Source: an uncultured Actinomycetota bacterium (GTDB lineage Bacteria > Actinomycetota > Geothermincolia > Geothermincolales > RBG-13-55-18). From it: a stretch of 64,000 nucleotides of DNA. A model generated the notes under the pieces. That model had not been told where the DNA came from and made no database searches. It saw nothing but the letters and a program-made list of their open reading frames with translations. Shown piece by piece: positions 1-8,070 of this stretch (position 1 is the first letter of the stretch; each line of letters starts with the position of its first letter). A program made the position numbers and the translations under genes. The stretch lies in NCBI GenBank assembly GCA_964510515.1, contig CAZEAU010000011.1:4712-68711 (forward strand), written 5' to 3'.

Positions 1-308
1 TCCCCGGGAATATTGCTGGCGGCCACCTTGAGCGGGCCCGCGACCTCGGCTCGCCACCCCTCCATGTCCCGCCGCATCCTCTCCTCCATATCCAGCATCT
101 TCCGGGCGTGGCGGAGAAAAGAGATCCCCGCATCGGTGAGCCTGCTGCGGCCGGTGGAGCGGTCGATGAGCGTGCTCCCGAACTCCTTCTCCAGGGAGCG
201 GATATGGGAGCTGACGGCCGGCTGGGTGAGCCCCAGTTTGCGGGCGGCGGCGGAGAAGCCCCCGGCGTTCGCCACCTCCACGAATATGCGCAGGGTCTTG
301 GTGTTCAT
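1..308 (-). CDS. LysR-family transcriptional regulator, N-terminal part (3' end runs off the window); probably selenium-metabolism-associated
   Basis: Not in the ORF track. Manual translation from ATG 308: MNTKTLRIFVEVANAGGFSAAARKLGLTQPAVSSHIRSLEKEFGSTLIDRSTGRSRLTDAG, a classic LysR HTH. Lies downstream of selD-selA-selB-selC. Confidence 0.9.
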   Translation of the reverse strand, partial: MNTKTLRIFVEVANAGGFSAAARKLGLTQPAVSSHIRSLEKEFGSTLIDRSTGRSRLTDAGISFLRHARKMLDMEERMRRDMEGWRAEVAGPLKVAASNIPG

Positions 309-317
309 CCTTGGCGT

Positions 318-323
318 ATTATA
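318..323 (-). promoter_or_regulatory. Perfect TATAAT -10 box for the LysR gene
   Basis: ATTATA on the + strand, 9 nt upstream of the LysR ATG, in an otherwise very GC-rich context. Confidence 0.6.
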
Positions 324-358
324 ATCGATTTCCTCACCGCCTTCATAGGCCGCCCGGA

Positions 359-729
359 CGCAGATGGGGTCAGGTCTTGTTCTTTGCCTGCTCCGCTATC
401 TTGCCTGTTCGCACCCGGGGTTTTGCCGCGCATATGCAAGACGTGGCCCCCGGTGCCCCCCCGGCCCTCCGCGCCGCCGCGCCCGCCCTCTATTCAGCGC
501 GGGTGACGCGGGAAGGATTCGCCTTCCGTTTCGCGCAGGAAGACCTGCAGGGCGGCGGACGCCTCCCGCAAGCGCTGCGAGAGGGCCTCTGCCTTCCTCG
601 CCTCTGCCGCTGCGGCGGCATCCCGCGCCGATATCGCGCGGCTACGGTCGCAATGGCATCCTCGGGCGGGCGGGAGGCTATGGCTCATGCCCGGCAGCGC
701 TCGCGGAGCTTTGGCAGACCCCCCCCGCG
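359..729. repeat. ~370-bp direct repeat, copy 1 (between tRNA-Sec and LysR)
   Basis: Near-identical to 903-1270 (a few substitutions, one 3-nt indel). Starts with an imperfect inverted repeat GGGGTCAGGTCTTG (366-379) / CAAGACGTGGCCCC (437-450). Confidence 0.95.
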
Positions 730-744
730 CCCGCTGAGAATAAA

Positions 745-840
745 TGGCGGAGATGCGTAAGAATCGAACTTACCCGGCGCCCGTTACGACGCCGCACCGG
801 TTTTGAAGACCGGGCCGCCCACCAGGACGAATGCACCTCC
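745..840 (-). tRNA. selC: tRNA-Sec (anticodon UCA)
   Basis: Reverse complement GGAGGTGC...CCGGT-CT-TCA-AA-ACCGG...GGTAAGTTCGATTCTTAC-GCATCTCC-GCCA. 96 nt, 8-bp acceptor stem, long variable arm, encoded CCA, next to selAB. Confidence 0.97.
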
Positions 841-847
841 ACGCCAT

Positions 848-853
848 ATTATA
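848..853 (-). promoter_or_regulatory. TATAAT -10 box of selC
   Basis: ATTATA on the + strand, 7 nt upstream of the tRNA 5' end. Confidence 0.6.
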
Positions 854-902
854 ATCTTTCCCGCCGCCGCCGCCACCGCCATCTCCACGCGGACGAAGAT
901 GG

Positions 903-1270
903 CGCAGATGGGGTCAGGTCTTGTTCTTTGCCTGCTCCGCTATCTTGCCTGTTCGCACCCGGGGTTTTGCCGCGCATATGCAAGACGTGGCCCCCGGTGC
1001 CCCCCCGGCCCTCCGCGCCGCCGCGCCCGCCCTCTATTCAGCGCGGGTGACGCGGGAAGGATTCGCCTTCCGTTTCGCGCAGGAAGACCTGCAGGGCGGC
1101 GGACGCCTCCCGCAAGCGCTGCGAGAGGGCCTCTGCCTTCCTCGCCTCTGCCGCCGCGGCGGCATCCCGCGCCGATATCGCGCTGCGGCCGCAATGGTAT
1201 CCTCGGGCGGGCGGGAGGCTATGGCTCATGCCCGGCAGCGCCCGCGGAGCCTTGGCAGACCCTCCCCGCG
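903..1270. repeat. ~370-bp direct repeat, copy 2 (between selB and tRNA-Sec)
   Basis: Near-identical to 359-729. Confidence 0.95.
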
Positions 1271-1341
1271 ACCGCGGCGCCGACCAGCGGCGACAGGGCT
1301 GAAGGCAGGCTTAAGGCAGACCCCCACGCGCCCGAGGCGCC

Positions 1342-3249
1342 TCAGAAAGGCATGCGGTAATCGCCCTCGCGCCGGGTGACACGCTTGCGGTCGAAGTGCT
1401 CGAGCAGGGGGATGGCGTACTTGCGGCTGGCGCCGAGCATGTCCCGCACCTCCGCCACCTCCAGCCTCCCGCTGGCGGCGAGATGGGCGCGGATGCGCTC
1501 CTCCGCCTGGGAGAGCAGGCCGTGCGCCAGGAAATAGTCGGCGTTCACCTGCTCGATTTCCCCCTCCTCCACGAGCATGGCCAGCATGTCGCGCAGCGCT
1601 CCCCTCTCCAGGCCCGACGAGGCCAGCATCTCCTTGAAGAGAGGGGGGGAATAACCGCCCTCGCGGATGGAGCCCAGCAGCTCCTCCTTGACCGCCTGTT
1701 CCGCCGTGGAGAGCGACCTGCCCTTCCCGGCCAGGCGCACCCGCCCCGCCTCCACCTCCAGCGCCCCGGCGGAGACCAGGTCGCGCAGCAGGGCCTCGAA
1801 GACCTCGGGGGTGAGCGCCGCGTCCGCCCCCCGCCGCAGCGCTTCCTTCTCGACCCCCGGCTTGAGCGGGTTGGCCTCATGCATCTCCACGGTGGCGGCG
1901 GTCAGGCGCTCCCGCAGCGATGCCAGCAGGGCGGGGGTGACGAAGAGCGGGGCGCCGTCCCCCGCCACCTCCGCCATCTTCCCGCCGGAGATGAGCTCGG
2001 CGAGGGCGGAGTCCACCTCCGACTCACCCAGCTCGACCCGGGAGATGAGCTCCCGCCGCGAGAGGGGAACGCCCTTTTCCTCCACCGCCAGCAGCAGCAG
2101 CTCCCGCGGCATGCCCCGCTCCCGCACCTCCAGGCCCTCCAGCACCTCCCGGCGGTGGTGGCGGTGCTTGGCGGGGTGGGCATCGAGGATGACCCCGCCC
2201 CCGATGGTGGTCACCGGCGAGTAGCTGCGCAGGATGAAGCGGTCGCCGTAGGCGGCGATGAGCGGGCTCTCCAGGCGGAACTGCACATAGGCTTTCTCGC
2301 CCGGGGGAAGCTCCTCCCTGCCCCCCAGGAGGACCACCCGCGCCATGACCTCCCTGGTGCCGTGGTGAAGGCGCACCCGGGCGCGGTTCTTCAAGGGCCG
2401 CGGGGCGGCCGCGATGAGCTGGAGGCCGGCGTCGGCCATGAAGGTGGTGCGCAGGTAGCCGGGCGTCCCCAGCACGTCCCCCCGCTCGATGTCTGCGGTG
2501 GAGACGCCGGGCAGGTTCATGGCCACCCTCTGCCCGGCGAAGGCGCGCTCCACATCCCCCCCGTGCACCTGTATATTGCGCACGCGCACCTTCCTCCCCG
2601 AGGGCTGTATGACCCCCTCATCGCCGTCGGCGGCACTGCCCTCCCACATGGTCCCGGTGACCACCGTTCCTATTCCCTTGAGGGTGAAGACGCGGTCCAC
2701 GGGAAGGCGGAAGGGGCCGCTCTCGTCGCGACGGCCCAGGGTGGACGCCACGCGCAGCAGCGCCTCGCGCAGCTCGTCCAGGCCCCGGCCGGTGCGGCTG
2801 GAGGTGACCACGACCTCGGCGCCCTCCAGGGCCGTCCCCGCCACCGCCTCGGCGACATCCTCCCTGGCCAGCTCCAGCATATCCTCGTCGACCAGGTCCG
2901 CCTTGGTGATCACCAGCACCCCGTGCTTCACCCCCAGCAGGTCCACGATGGCCAGGTGCTCCAGCGTCTGTGGCATCACCCCATCGTCCGCCGCCACCGC
3001 CAGCAGCACCAGGTCGAAGCCGCTCGCGCCCGCCAGCATGTTCTTCACGAAGTGTTCATGCCCGGGGACGTCCACCACGCCGGCGGCGACCCCGCCCGGG
3101 AGGGCGATGTCCGCGAAGCCCAGCTCGATGGAGATGCCGCGCTCCTTTTCCTCCTTGAGGCGGTCGGTGTCCACCCCGGTGAGGGCACGGATGAGTTCCG
3201 TCTTGCCGTGGTCGATGTGCCCCGCCGTGCCGATGATGAAGCTCTTCAT
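1342..3249 (-). CDS. selB: Selenocysteine-specific translation elongation factor
   Basis: [12 protein letters not shown]-loop, [18 protein letters not shown]; C-terminal winged-helix region ending [13 protein letters not shown]...R.GDYR. Confidence 0.97.
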
Positions 3250-4673
3250 GCCCGCTCTGGCGTATCCGGGGGAGCCATGGCCGCGAAGGCCTCCGCCAGC
3301 AGGGAGACCTCGCCGTCGCTCACCGTGCGCATGTCCAGGATGACGCGGCCGTCCCTGATGCGGCAGATGACCGGCGGCTCGGAGGCGCGCAGCCTCCCCT
3401 CGATTTCGTTGGCGCTGAGGGAGGGGGAGACGACGGCGACCGTCCAGGTGGGGAGGTCCTCCAGGGGCAGGGCGCCCCCCCCGGCTCGGGACACGCCCTC
3501 CACCACCTCCGCTTGAAAGGCGTCCAGGGGGGCGAGCCCCTCCGCCAGGGCGCGGGCCCGGCGCCGCAGGGCCTCCTGCTCCGCCGTGAGCATGGCCAGG
3601 GTGGGTATCTCCCTCACCGCCCTCTCCGGATCCAGGTAGTGGCGCAGGGTGGCCTCCAGGGCGGCGATGGTCAGCTTGCCCACCCTGAGCGCCCTGGCCA
3701 GGGGGTGTGCGGCCATGATGTCGACGAGGTCCTTCCTGCCCAGGATGATGCCGGCCTGGGGTCCGCCCAGCAGCTTGTCCCCGCTGAAGCAGACGAGGTC
3801 GGCGCCCTCCTGCAGCGAGCGCATGATGGTCGGCTCATAGGAGAGGCCGTAGCCACTGAGGTCGATGTAAACGCCGCTCCCCAGGTCGTCGAGCAGCGGC
3901 AGCCCGAATTCGCGGGCCAGGGAGGCGAGGCCCGGGAGGTCCGCCTCGGAGGTGAAGCCCATGATGCGGTAGTTGCTGGGATGGGCGCGCATGAGCATTG
4001 CCGTCTCGCTGGTGATGGCGCGGCGGTAGTCGTCCAGGTAGGTCTTGTTGGTGGTCCCCACCTCCACCAGGCGCGCGCCGCTCTGGGCCATGACGTCCGG
4101 CAGGCGGAAGGAGCCGCCGATCTCGATGAGCTGCCCGCGGCTGACCACGACCTCCCTGCCCGCGGCGAGGGCGGTCAGCGCCAACAATACCGCCGCGGCG
4201 TTGTTGTTGACGACCAGCGCCGACTCGGCCCCGCTTAGCTCGCACAGCAGCTTCCTGAGATGCGCCTGCCGCGAGCCCCTCGAGCCGTCGTCGAGGTCGA
4301 ACTCGAGATTGTTGTAATGCGCCCCCGCCTCCGCCACGGCGGCGAGGGCGGGCGCGGAGAGGAGAGAGCGGCCCAGGTTGGTGTGCACGACTATGCCGGT
4401 GGCGTTGACCACCCTGCGCAGGCTCCACTGCAGCCTCTCCTCGACCTCTTTCTCCACCAGGTCAACCAGTTCCCTGGTGCCCGTCTCGATCTTCCCCAGC
4501 GACATCTCGTCCTTAGCGGCCAGAATGGCCGCGCGCACGCCGTCGAGCACCACCCGCGACGCCTCGCTGACCAGCTCGCGCGGTACCCCCCCGCCCAGCT
4601 TATGGCTGCGGTAAACGGCCTGGATGAGGTCGTTCACCGAGGACAGGTTCCTCAGGTAGTCCTTCTTGTCCAT
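3246..4673 (-). CDS. selA: L-seryl-tRNA(Sec) selenium transferase
   Basis: [52 protein letters not shown] (PLP lysine). 4-nt overlap with selB. Confidence 0.97.
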
Positions 4674-4815
4674 GGCATTAGTTTAAACGCTGCGGGGGTG
4701 GGCTGCCAGCGGCGCCCCCGGGGCCGTGCGCCGCCTCCCCATGTTTAACCCCCGGCGGGCCAAGCCCGGGGCGGGCGTGCCCCGCGAGCCTTTCAGCAGC
4801 CTTTGCGCCCCCGGC

Positions 4816-5856
4816 TCACGGGCTCACCCGTATGAGGGGCTCGCCGCGGCTCACGAATTCCCCGATACGGCCCCAGCCCATCTCGCCGCCCATCTCTCGC
4901 GCGAAGGCCTCCTCCCCCTCCGGCGGCAGCGCTATGAGCAGCCCCCCCGAGGTCTGGGGGTCGTAGAGGAGGTCGCGGTCGGTCTCGTCCACCTGCCGCG
5001 ATATCTGCGTCCGACCCGAGAGGAAGTCGCGGTTCTTATGCGCCCCCCCGGGGATCATGCCCTCGGCCGCCATGGCGCGGGCGCCCGCGTAGGCGGGGAG
5101 GAGGGATGAGGAGAGCTCGCATGCCAGGCCCCGGGAGGGCAGCATGTTGGAGAGATGCCCCACCAACCCGAAGCCGGTGACGTCGGTGCAGGCATGGGCA
5201 CCGGCGCACAGCGCGGCCCGGGAGGCCGCGGCGTTGAGCGCCGCCATGCCCTCGATGGCCTCGCGCATGTCCTCCTCGGCCAGGAAGCCGCCCTTGAGCG
5301 CGGTGGCGAGGATGCCCGTGCCCAGGGGCTTGGTCAGGAGCAGGAGGTCGCCCGCCTCGGCGCCCAGGCTGGTGAGCACGCGGTCGGGGTGCACCCTGCC
5401 GGTGACCGCCAGGCCGTACTTGGGCTCCTCGTCGTCGACGGAGTGCCCGCCGACCAGCACCGCGCCCGCCTCCTGTATCTTGTCCAGCCCCCCCTCGAGT
5501 ATGGTGGAGAGGATGTCCATGCCCAGCGAACAAGGGAAACAGACGATGTTCATGGCCGAGAGGGGCACGCCCCCCATGGCGTAGATGTCGCTCAGGGAGT
5601 TGGCCGCGGCTATCTGCCCGAAGAGGTAGGGGTCGTCCACGATGGGGGTGAAGAAATCGACGCTATGCACGAGGGCCGTCTCGCCGTCCAGCAGGTACAC
5701 GGCCGCGTCGTCGGGGGTGTCCAGCCCCACCAGGATGTCCTGTCGTTTCTCGCCCGGCGGCAGCAGGCGCAACAGTTTCTCCAGGTCCTCCGGACCCACT
5801 TTGGCCGCTCACCCCGACTTGCTGGAGAGAAGGGTCAGCCTGACCTTTTCCCGCAT
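4816..5856 (-). CDS. selD: Selenide, water dikinase, selenocysteine-containing (UGA at codon 16)
   Basis: The track ORF starts at the internal GTG 5799. The true start is ATG 5856 with an AAGGAGGT SD, giving MREKVRLTLLSSKSG-U-AAKVGPEDL (U at 5809-5811, conserved Lys three residues later). Also DDAAVY, DFFTPIVDDP, GGHS, TDVTGFG, DPQTSGGLL motifs; 346 aa. Confidence 0.95.
5783..5797 (-). promoter_or_regulatory. Putative bacterial SECIS hairpin of selD
   Basis: Minus-strand GGGUCC-GGA-GGACCU stem-loop beginning 11 nt after the UGA, the spacing known for E. coli-type SECIS elements. Confidence 0.7.
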
Positions 5857-5874
5857 TATAAGACCTCCTTATAA
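5856..5874. promoter_or_regulatory. Palindrome TTATAAG-N5-CTTATAA overlapping the selD Shine-Dalgarno
   Basis: Perfect 7-bp inverted repeat containing a T-N11-A LysR-type core. Confidence 0.5.
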
Positions 5875-6030
5875 GCACGATTACAAATAATTATAAATGG
5901 GCGGATGCCGGGATGCCAGGTGTCTTTTCCCCTCCCTTGGCTTGATGCGCTTGCAGGCGCCGGGGACGAACGCCTCTTCGTGCCGCGTATCCCCGCGCTC
6001 GCCGCCCGCACCGGCTCCGCCGTGAGCGGC

Positions 6031-6642
6031 TTATTCCACCAGCGTGCCCAGGCTGCGCGAGATCTCCATCACCAGGTGCTCTCCCGAGGTACGCGCGTTG
6101 CGCAGGGCCGTGGGGTGGTCCTTGATGGCGCCCCTGCGGCCTATGCGGAAGAAGAGCAGGCGCTCGTAATACTTGATGTCCAGGAGGTCGAAGAAGATGT
6201 CCATCACCTTGAGGGCTCCGTCGAAGGCGCGCGGGTCGTCGGCGCCGGCGGTGGAGAGGAACAGGCCCCGCCTGGCGTGCCTGGTCTCGGGGTCGGTCAC
6301 CTCCTCGCCCAACAGCACCTTGCGCGCCCACAGGCACTGGTGGCGGTCGATGAGCGCTTTGGTTCGGGCGTTGAGGGAGTTGAAGTAGATGGGGGCGGCG
6401 AGGATGATGCCGTGCGCCTGGGTGGTGAGGCGGTAGATCTTGCCCATGGCGTCGTCAAGGCTGCACTCGCCGGTCTTCGCGCAGTCCCCGCAACCCCGGC
6501 AGGGGTCGATCTCGCGGTTGCAGACGATGACCTTGCTCACGGAGGCCCCGGCCTCCCTGGCGCCGCCCAAGGCCTCGTTCAGCAGCAGGGAGGTGTTGCC
6601 GCCCGTGCGCGGACTCCCCGCGATCCCCAGGATTTTTACCAT
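6031..6642 (-). CDS. Flavodoxin-family / iron-sulfur flavoprotein (NADPH-dependent FMN reductase fold)
   Basis: GIAGSPRTGGNT, CRGCGDC...C cluster, AAPIYF, KALIDR. Confidence 0.85.
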   Translation of the reverse strand: MVKILGIAGSPRTGGNTSLLLNEALGGAREAGASVSKVIVCNREIDPCRGCGDCAKTGECSLDDAMGKIYRLTTQAHGIILAAPIYFNSLNARTKALIDRHQCLWARKVLLGEEVTDPETRHARRGLFLSTAGADDPRAFDGALKVMDIFFDLLDIKYYERLLFFRIGRRGAIKDHPTALRNARTSGEHLVMEISRSLGTLVE

Positions 6643-6718
6643 GACCGCCTCTTCCCCAGCGAGCGCGACATCGCCCGATTTGCGCGTATTCTATCCGATA
6701 GCGGTTATAACCGCAAAC

Positions 6719-7870
6719 CTATGCGGCCGCCCCTTTCTCCCGGAGTTCGCTTATCCGCGCCGCGTCGTAGCCCGCCTCCGCCAGGACCTCGTCGGTGTGC
6801 TGGCCGAGCGCGGGCGCGGGCGTCTCGAAGCGGGGGGGCGTCGCGGAGAGCTTGTGGGGGCTCCCCAGCTGCTTGACGGCGCCGTCCCCGCTTTTTATCT
6901 CCACCACCATGTCGCGGTGGCGGACCTGGGGGTCGTCCAGGGCCTCCTTCACGCTCGCCAGGGGCGCGCAGGGGACATCGTGCTCGTCGAAGACCCGCAC
7001 CCATTCGTCTAGCGGGCGGCTGCGTATGGCCTCCGCCACCCGGGGCAGGAGGTCTCCGGCCCCCAGCAGGCGTTCCACCGTGAGCAGGTCTTTTACGTCT
7101 TCCATGCACGCTGCCTCGCACAGGCTTTTCCAGAACCAGTCCTCGTGCACGATGCCCAGGGCCAGGCGCTTTCCATCCGAGGTCTCGAAGATGCCGTAAT
7201 GGGGCAGCATGTGGATGAAGTTGCCGGGCGGCTCCTCTCCCGTCTCCAGGTAGGGCCCGAGGCTGTTGTGGAGCAGCGCGACCACGCAGTCCAGCATGGA
7301 GATGTCCACGTACTGGCCCTCGCCGGTCCTCTCCCGCGCCAGCAGGGCGGCCTGTATGGCGATGACCGCGTTCAACGCGGAGGTGATGTCGGCGACCTCG
7401 AAGCCGGGGATGACCGGGTCGCCGCCCCCGTCCCTGGTGAGGCCGAGCACGCCCCCCAGGGCCATATAGTTGATGTCGTGGCCGGGGCGGTCGCGGTAGG
7501 GTCCGTCCTGCCCGAAGCCGCTGATGGAACAGTAGATGAGACGCGGGTTGTCGGCCTTGAGGGAGTCGTAGTCCACCCCCAGGCGGGCGGTGGTGCCCGG
7601 CCTGAAGCCCTCCACCACCACGTCCGTCGTGCGCGCCAGGGCGCGGAAGGCCTCCTGCGCCGCGGCGTCCTTGAGGTTGAGGGCGAGGCTTTTTTTGTTG
7701 CGGTTGATCTGGTTGAAGAGAAAGCGGAAGGCCCGGGCGTGGTCCCCGGAGCCGGGGGGCTCCACCTTGATGACCTCCGCCCCCAGGTCGGCGAGGATCA
7801 TGGTGCACAGGGGTCCGGGATAGAGCATGGTCAGGTCGAGTACGCGGATGCCTTGCAGCGGCGTGGTCAT
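6719..7870 (-). CDS. CaiB/BaiF family III CoA transferase
   Basis: GIRVLDLT..PGP, LADLGAEVIKVEPP, NRNKKS, EGFRPG, SISGFGQ.GP, GHDINY motifs. Confidence 0.93.
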   Translation of the reverse strand: MTTPLQGIRVLDLTMLYPGPLCTMILADLGAEVIKVEPPGSGDHARAFRFLFNQINRNKKSLALNLKDAAAQEAFRALARTTDVVVEGFRPGTTARLGVDYDSLKADNPRLIYCSISGFGQDGPYRDRPGHDINYMALGGVLGLTRDGGGDPVIPGFEVADITSALNAVIAIQAALLARERTGEGQYVDISMLDCVVALLHNSLGPYLETGEEPPGNFIHMLPHYGIFETSDGKRLALGIVHEDWFWKSLCEAACMEDVKDLLTVERLLGAGDLLPRVAEAIRSRPLDEWVRVFDEHDVPCAPLASVKEALDDPQVRHRDMVVEIKSGDGAVKQLGSPHKLSATPPRFETPAPALGQHTDEVLAEAGYDAARISELREKGAAA

Positions 7871-7921
7871 GCGGTTTCCTCCTCCTTCGATCGGGCAGGG
7901 CGTTCCCGAGTATTATAAGCT

Positions 7922-8070
7922 AATTCGACCGCGCTGGGAGATGAAAGCCGCTGGGGGGGCCGCCGGTACGCATGCCCGCGGGGAAAGAAAAATAGGCCAA
8001 TTCGACCGCGCTGGGAGATGAAAGCCGCTGGGGGGGCCGCCGGTACGCATGCCCGCGGGAAAAGAAAAAT
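7922..8070. repeat. 72-bp tandem direct repeat x2 (period 77) abutting the tRNA-Pro 3' end
   Basis: AATTCGACCGCGCTGGGAGATGAAAGCCGCTGGGGGGGCCGCCGGTACGCATGCCCGCGGG.AAAGAAAAAT at 7922-7993 and 7999-8070, with a single mismatch. Confidence 0.95.

Follow-up and report, generated by a model that had tools for sequence, protein, structure and literature searches.

The tRNA-Sec gene selC of an uncultured Actinomycetota host near Ca. Solincola and Geothermincolales is bracketed by two long direct repeats, R_A (359-734, 376 nt) and R_B (903-1275, 373 nt). The repeat, referred to as R, is an ordinary duplicated spacer that carries a miniature element of the TIRYT/REPIN type and a captured helicase pseudogene fragment. 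We consider it probable (about 70%) that R is a lineage-specific, non-tandem segmental duplication of a non-coding spacer of about 376 bp in the sel locus. Positions refer to the window, i.e., the whole 64-kb stretch of DNA that was analyzed.

Layout of the sel locus and copy number of the repeat

All genes of the locus are located on the minus strand, in the order selD (4816-5799), selA (3246-4673), selB (1342-3249), R_B, selC, R_A and lysR. A single copy of selC (745-840, anticodon TCA) was detected between the repeats by ARAGORN and by a match to Rfam RF01852 with 78 bits; selB is its upstream neighbor in the selD-selA-selB-selC-lysR synteny. The gene for the lysR-family regulator is cut by the window edge and only its 5' part is present (1-308, ATG at 308-306), with an HTH_1 domain (PF00126, E=8e-23). 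Read on the same strand, R_B lies between selB and the selC promoter and R_A between selC and the lysR promoter, i.e., each copy is found 3' of one gene and 5' of the next promoter.

The near-identical repeats around tRNA-Sec that had been described in the initial annotation were confirmed, with right ends 5 nt beyond 729 and 1270, and the TATAAT boxes, the inverted repeat and the minus-strand ORFs of 63-64 aa were also found where it had placed them. The two copies start 544 nt apart, leave a gap of 168 bp between them and are 97% identical, with 8 substitutions and one 3-nt indel. These differences are confined to 611-730, with all 9 of them in the first 124 of the 376 nt, and positions 359-610 equal 903-1154 letter for letter over 252 nt. 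In addition, 20 nt from the selB-proximal end of R recur as a mini-copy (CGGGCGCGTGGGGGTCTGCC) on the minus strand at 1315-1334, just past the selB stop (713-733 versus 1315-1334, 90% identity). The literature search for the repeat sequence retrieved unrelated primers only.

An assembly artefact in this metagenome-assembled genome could account for the second copy of R, given that the source organism is uncultured, that short-read graphs break within R, and that chimeric contigs occur at R. The copies were checked with Logan contigs from metagenome runs, including four independent runs from three studies (X1-X4). In X1-X4, the lysR-R_A (1-388) and R_B-selB (1212-2000) regions were recovered on separate contigs. 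A single contig of 262 nt (671-932) carried R on both sides of selC in X2-X4, and in X1 this R_A-selC-R_B region was covered by two overlapping contigs (671-802 and 779-932). Letters specific to R_B were tied to selB by contigs L041, which is 100% identical to window 1212-7951, and L042, which is 99.8% identical to 1117-4894; copy-specific letters are thus joined to selB on one side and to selC on the other. Concerning depth, the contig common to both copies (939-1113) reached 34.8 in X2, compared to 15.5-18.7 for the flanks and 15.3 for the selC contig (671-932), and the shared R contig reached 13.3 in X1 compared to flanks of 6-7.8 (about 2-fold). In X3 the values were 11.4 versus 8-10, that is, not 2-fold. 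Further, a 63-mer common to R and the helicase locus described below (540-602) was present at about 3-fold depth in X2, where the R-only contig 939-1113 was at about 2-fold. In view of the contig from three runs in which R flanks selC on either side, the joined copy-specific letters and the 2-fold depth of the shared part in X1 and X2, an artefact is hardly credible. The contigs from independent metagenomes support both copies: there are two R copies and one selC per genome, and the duplication is genuine.

No further copy of the whole 376-nt R was found in the 64-kb window, in the loci of 40 relatives or in 120 metagenome loci (among the matches listed). Since the whole R exists in exactly two copies, both at this locus, it is not a dispersed mobile element. 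The earlier proposal that R had inserted twice or had been duplicated around selC therefore stands for the duplication and not for a dispersed mobile element, and the copies that were expected elsewhere did not appear for the whole R in blastn searches of the window, of the 40 relatives' loci and of the 120 listed metagenome loci.

At the contig level, neither empty sites nor single-copy strains were found across 12 metagenome runs. Two joints, 395 to 895 and 175 to 1564, appeared in these runs; their anchors comprise only 22-30 nt and they were treated as multi-mapping artefacts. The selC contig was at about single-copy depth, similar to the flanks, in X2-X4, and therefore no sizeable subpopulation with a deleted or amplified selC was seen. 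Excision or amplification of selC by the direct repeats, as put forward in the initial annotation, is possible in principle, but the depths give no sign of it. Perfect direct repeats of 252 bp nevertheless make selC deletable by homologous recombination, a property of possible relevance to how strains differ in their use of selenium.

Components of the repeat

Along the plus strand, each copy of R is a three-part patchwork formed by an 85-nt hairpin element, a 164-nt fragment of a helicase gene and about 110 nt of obscure origin. This last part corresponds to the selB/selC-proximal 111 nt of R_A (624-734, minus strand) and holds all differences between R_A and R_B but one. Searches for its source with blastn and tblastx against 1.1 Mb of loci and the window produced noise only, with no match outside the sel locus.

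The hairpin element (plus strand, 366-450 in R_A and 910-994 in R_B) resembles a REPIN or a dimer of terminal inverted repeats. Its left arm is a perfect family end and its right arm (GGGGcCAcGTCTTG) has decayed; the inverted repeat GGGGTCAGGTCTTG / CAAGACGTGGCCCC is located at 366-379 / 437-450 and at 910-923 / 981-994. Full-length homologues with 76-81% identity were identified at six loci (L122, L098, L034, L159, L155, and L161), and further members of the family are found in sel spacers of relatives, for instance as an 85-nt copy in opposite orientation between selB and selC (L001:7919-8003). An nhmmer profile from which the window rows had been left out matched, within the 64-kb window, only R_A and R_B (E=2e-15). 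Summed contig depth over 363-427 and 907-970 was about 450-3200, compared to 6-19 in the flanks, and derived from many contigs with differing flanks; over 363-427 it was roughly 25-200-fold that of the flanks in all 12 runs.

The 22-nt end of the element, GGGGTCAGGTCTTGTTYTTTGC, was found letter-perfect in at least 120 JGI metagenome contigs of 33-72% GC among the matches listed. Also among the matches listed, it forms at least 85 inverted pairs in at least 66 loci, with size classes near 50, 85, 125, and 218 nt, and at least 12 loci in which the inverted ends bracket a protein of 282-324 aa beginning with MARPLRIEY or MARPLRIQT. These bracketed proteins, encoded in other organisms (e.g., L061 1282-2174, L072 1160-2398, and L082 7910-9148), match the Y1_Tnp domain (PF01797, E=8e-14) and the NCBIfam model REP_Tyr_transpos (NF047646, 80.0 and 76.9 bits with a cut-off of 80), i.e., they are Y1 transposases. 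A tblastn search of the 64-kb window with four real RAYTs of the associated family revealed no Y1 transposase gene.

RAYT-like genes flanked by long terminal inverted repeats that share GGGGWSAS are named "TIRtrons" or "TIRYT" by Di Nocera, De Gregorio & Rocco (2013; PMC3733652). The sequence GGGGTCAG at 366-373 and 910-917 fits the GGGGWSAS motif, and the 85-nt element shares with TIRtrons and REPINs the ends that flank a Y1 gene (elsewhere), the dispersed inverted pairs and the GGGGWSAS outer end. In that paper a classical REP is a palindrome of 20-40 nt with an unpaired tag, GTAG or CGTC, on one side; the element carries neither tag at its two ends, where the flanks are variable, and is therefore no classical REP. 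A classical DDE-derived MITE fails for want of a target-site duplication: among the matches listed, 71 of the 85 pairs had no flanking direct repeat and the rest had chance-like repeats of 2-4 nt, and none was present around the elements in the window. The 85-nt part is, to judge by its sequence, a REP/MITE-like family member tied to Y1 tyrosine transposases of the RAYT/TIRYT type.

The 22-nt terminal repeat deserves a separate remark. It is extremely conserved and is tied to a widespread, long-form family of Y1 tyrosine transposases, and it may be of more interest than the repeat finding itself.

The initial annotation had taken R for a decayed RAYT/MITE-like element. This holds for the 85-nt hairpin, a member of a Y1-linked family, but not for the rest of R, in which no transposase remnant was detected. 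Neither Pfam (E<=1) nor NCBIfam (E<=10) models matched any frame of R, the long plus-strand ORFs or the minus-strand ORF, and tblastn with the four real RAYTs gave E>=0.13 on a 1-kb target, which is noise. The plus-strand frame PPALRAAAPALYSARVTRE, which had been read as the start of a RAYT, is the antisense of the helicase-gene fragment.

This 164-nt fragment (minus strand, 460-623 in R_A and 1004-1167 in R_B, with one difference at 611/1155) is a pseudogene piece of a DinG/XPD-type helicase gene, as indicated by a third copy and by homology to protein P0003. The third, partial copy of 460-623 is found on other contigs, of 30 kb and 2.9 kb, with 10 mismatches in 164 nt (about 94% identity), and its depth tracks the genome depth in every run. 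Its flanks, which in the intact gene read GGGCACTGACCAGGCTGACGGCCATGGCTT and TCCTCGGCCTCCAGGGCCAGGGCCTTTTCG, extend the minus-strand frame of the 64-aa ORF (EKALALEAEE, followed by DAAAAAEARKAEALSQRLREASAALQVFLRETEDESFPRHLRW and then IEGG). An exhaustive phmmer search with the 64-aa ORF led to P0003, a 317-aa protein bearing a Helicase_C_2 domain (PF13307), and P0003 is 62% identical to the third-copy translation over 52 aa (pairwise E=1e-16). The alignment takes in RHLRWIE from the read-through beyond the stop in R, and the flank motif EKALALE, absent from the query, is also found just upstream of the aligned stretch in P0003. At the nucleotide level, window 480-601 is 79% identical to the helicase gene in L163 (596-717). 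When P0003 was used in tblastn against the window, it matched the two R copies only (at 1035-1127 in R_B) and the match ran through the TGA. These similarities indicate that an intact helicase copy exists elsewhere in the same genome and that 460-623 and 1004-1167 are dead internal fragments of it.

The 64-aa, Ala-rich ORF (494-688, minus strand) is in the helicase frame at residues 23-64 and has a 63-aa counterpart in R_B (1038-1229, minus strand). Retention of the ORF in both copies, with an indel that is in frame, would be expected if R encoded a small Ala-rich protein in two gene copies. This explanation is nonetheless extremely improbable, as residues 23-64 are an internal helicase piece with homology that passes through the stop codon, no Shine-Dalgarno sequence is evident upstream, and no homologue was found as a small protein. 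A word-indexed search of 5.8e9 proteins gave no homologue of the 64-aa ORF, and two phmmer matches (P0001 and P0002) were discounted as low-complexity repeats. In place of the TGA at 496-494, the parent copy and the diverged strains X15-X17 have TGG; strain X15 has lost both the ATG (687 A>G, ATG to ACG) and the TGA (494 T>C). A small-gene test gave the same picture: start and stop are not kept among strains and there are no length-matched homologues. The 63/64-aa ORFs are not genes and should not be annotated as such; they arose when the helicase frame was closed by a TGG-to-TGA change.

Promoters, related genomes and possible functions

Both TATAAT -10 boxes are located outside the repeat on the minus strand, that of selC at 848-853 (read 853-848), 7 nt before the 5' end of the tRNA, and that of lysR at 318-323 (read 323-318), 9 nt before the ATG. 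The closest SelB relatives are MAGs at 66-76% identity, among them Ca. Solincola and Geothermincolales. The distance from selB to selC is 22-337 nt in about 20 related MAGs, lysR comes next after selC in most, and the arrangement selB - TATAAT - selC - TATAAT - lysR is mostly retained. A (G)GTTATAAT box lies 6-8 nt 5' of selC in nearly all close relatives without R, and a TATATAAT box 9-11 nt 5' of the lysR ATG in L003, L005, L006, and L007. Given this conservation in relatives without R, both TATAAT boxes are ancestral promoters of selC and lysR, and R is not a shared promoter module. The similarity between the copies beyond the repeat end, upstream of the -10 box, was equalled by 215 of 2000 shuffles and is not significant except for the 10-mer GATTATAATA.

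The body of R was found in no relative examined with the same synteny. The spacers of these relatives are hypervariable and contain independent local duplications and palindromes of their own: a 72-nt duplication in two copies in L002, an 80-nt duplication that includes the selB 3' end in L008, an 86-nt duplication that includes the lysR 5' end in L012, and a 38-nt perfect inverted repeat in L004. R illustrates how spacers beside a tRNA gene gather hairpins that resemble miniature transposons, pieces of captured genes and local duplications, and how, in a high-GC genome, such junk can pass for a conserved ORF, for what is left of a transposase or for a shared promoter module.

A functional role of R was considered in this context. 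R could be a cis-acting module of the sel locus (a terminator, an insulator or an RNA-stabilizing 3' structure) that is kept identical by selection, as both copies are found directly 3' of a gene and 5' of the next promoter, R ends in a hairpin, and the RNA fold of the whole R has a z-score of -2.1. This last value is marginal, with 4 of 100 shuffles as good, and leaves some room for an RNA role. The TIRtron paper also describes REP-type elements downstream of coding regions, with hypothesized roles in termination and mRNA stabilization (PMC3733652). However, no other species with this synteny has R, shuffled sequences fold as well as the hairpin region (z = -0.7 to -1.6), and neither a terminator-like site on the minus strand nor an Rfam family for R was found, the Rfam search of the locus yielding tRNA-Sec only. 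Moreover, the block over which R_A and R_B agree perfectly varies between strains at many positions, and a major component of R is a dead gene fragment. We consider a cis-acting module improbable. R probably has no selected function, and its possible side effects, i.e., a hairpin 3' of selB and of selC and a 252-bp RecA substrate for the loss of selC, would be incidental.

Origin of the duplication and comparison with known systems

We propose that the patchwork was formed in one spacer, through insertion of the element and capture of filler DNA during break repair, and was subsequently copied 168 bp away. A local copy event is favored by the presence of R in exactly two copies. The copy could have been made by template switching or ectopic repair, or by tandem duplication of a unit comprising R, the promoter and selC, followed by loss of the second promoter and selC. 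Simple tandem duplication was rejected: selC and its promoter occur once, and R_A is followed by lysR and not by a second selC. An arrangement R-selC-R with one selC is therefore not the product of a single tandem duplication.

Gene conversion may since have kept the promoter-proximal 252 nt identical. If differences were spread uniformly, the chance that 9 of them fall in the first 124 of 376 nt is (124/376)^9, about 5e-5, and within the 252-nt block shared by R_A and R_B the diverged strains X15-X17 depart from the window at many sites. Differences at one end together with variation between strains in the identical block fit gene conversion better than purifying selection. L042 is a mosaic of R_B and R_A letters, which was not used as evidence for conversion because bubble-popping at k=31 can create such a mosaic. 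Alternatively, the perfect identity over 252 nt could result from a very recent second event. In X15 and X16, R_A is joined to selC, but on the selB side only the tip of the element was observed, which counts against the course of events proposed here and bears on the age of R_B.

It is also conceivable, though unlikely, that R is a composite non-autonomous mobile unit, in which a Y1 transposase of the TIRYT/RAYT type acted on the hairpin element and took some 290 nt of the DNA next to it, with the captured helicase fragment, into two neighboring spacers. One end of R is a genuine family element, and the other begins with GGGGTCTG, which fits GGGGWSAS and is inverted relative to the terminal arm. 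The recurrence of family elements in the sel spacers of relatives (e.g., L001:7919-8003) points in the same direction, as do the size classes of about 125 and about 218 nt, which show that different inner sequences can lie between the ends. Against this, the far end agrees with the family end in its first 8 nt only, the 64-kb window contains no Y1 transposase gene, the depth is 2-fold only, and R is present exactly twice, at a distance of 168 bp, no other copy being found in the rest of the window, in relatives or, among the matches listed, in the 120 metagenome loci. The duplication also extends 7 nt past the hairpin element on its outer side and about 12 nt past GGGGTCTG. As the segment overshoots the hairpin by these 7 nt, the boundaries of R are not the element's own ends and R was not moved as that element. 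A more elaborate version would make R a bacterial "transduplicate", with the hairpin and the adjacent host DNA, including the captured helicase fragment, moved by a TIRYT/RAYT-type single-strand transposase and pasted twice around selC, and with the 252-bp repeats then serving as a recombination switch that deletes selC and turns selenoprotein synthesis off. We regard this as very unlikely and retain local segmental duplication as the preferred reading.

Compared to known systems, the 85-nt element is like TIRtron/TIRYT and REP/REPIN-RAYT families in that it consists of a short repeat present as an inverted pair, with an end (GGGGTCAG) that conforms to the published GGGGWSAS motif. Also as in TIRtrons and TIRYTs, inverted copies of the 22-nt end lie on either side of Y1 (HUH) tyrosine transposase genes, and the family occurs as monomers, dimers and clusters that are intergenic and have no target-site duplication. 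Unlike a classical REP, the element carries no GTAG or CGTC tag and its single arm is not palindromic. Unlike a TIRtron, its right arm in the window is decayed and no cognate transposase is encoded in the window; the 376-nt duplicated unit, moreover, far exceeds the element in size and has other boundaries.

The 164-nt helicase piece sits between genes, starts and stops abruptly at 460 and 623, and resembles the filler DNA captured at break-repair junctions. Unlike plain filler DNA, it was later duplicated along with its neighbors.

The selC gene is a classical tRNA-gene integration hotspot, and the R copies resemble the att repeats of integrative elements in that they are direct repeats bracketing a tRNA gene. 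In contrast to such elements, R holds no part of the tRNA (it starts 10 nt after and 62 nt before it), no integrase or island is found between or beside the copies, and selB and lysR remain in an ancestral synteny that is unbroken relative to relatives. Finally, the perfect 252-nt block, the clustering of differences at one end and the variation among strains but not between paralogs form an indirect parallel to the concerted evolution of close direct repeats by gene conversion.

Small rearrangements at the sel locus

The selB-selC-lysR spacers of related genomes were found to carry local duplications or perfect palindromes of their own, which arose independently (L002:4561-4712, L008:7856-8035, L012:8365-8560 and L004:8213-8359), and the duplications take in gene ends, namely that of selB in L008 and that of lysR in L012. 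Small rearrangements thus appear to recur at the selB-selC-lysR locus as at a hotspot. In the sel locus of a further relative (L001:7919-8003), a member of the family of the window's 85-nt element lies between selB and selC, 14 nt past the selB stop codon and in the opposite orientation; the element entered this spacer in a separate insertion event.

In the window, a 20-nt mini-copy of the selB-proximal end of R, CGGGCGCGTGGGGGTCTGCC (1315-1334), is located 7 nt beyond the selB stop codon and 40 nt ahead of R_B, and it may be a relic of the event that copied R or a microhomology used in that event.

Mosaic and joined contigs at the repeat

At the selB-proximal end of R_B, an independent Logan contig (L042:3600-3781, corresponding to window 1117-1290) has letters of the R_B type, whose place is taken deeper into this copy by letters of the R_A type, the 3 extra nt among them. 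This mosaic reflects either gene conversion between R_A and R_B in another strain or bubble-popping by the assembler. In metagenome run X12, an 850-nt contig (window 1004-1555) links selB and R_B with sequence that flanks the intact helicase locus on its left side. This contig is probably a graph chimera formed via the 63-mer common to all three copies; less probably, it may be a real recombinant.

The lysR promoter

The lysR start codon lies just 9 nt past a perfect TATAAT (window 306-325), and a similar spacing, of 9-11 nt, was observed downstream of selC in four relatives (L003, L005, L006 and L007). This implies a lysR mRNA that would be leaderless or near-leaderless.

The 22-nt terminal repeat and its transposase

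The 22-nt sequence GGGGTCAGGTCTTGTTYTTTGC, present in the window at 366-387 and 910-931, was found letter-perfect in at least 120 metagenome contigs (L043-L162), with a GC content of 33-72% among the matches listed; the literature searched contained no match to it. Among these listed matches, inverted pairs fall into size classes of about 50, 85, 125 and 218 nt and lack target-site duplications, and a Y1 tyrosine transposase of 282-324 aa with a long C-terminal extension is bracketed by the repeat in 12 loci (for example, L061:1282-2174, L082:7910-9148 and L072:1160-2398). Conservation this strong in such different genomes suggests a TIRYT-type element that spreads horizontally.
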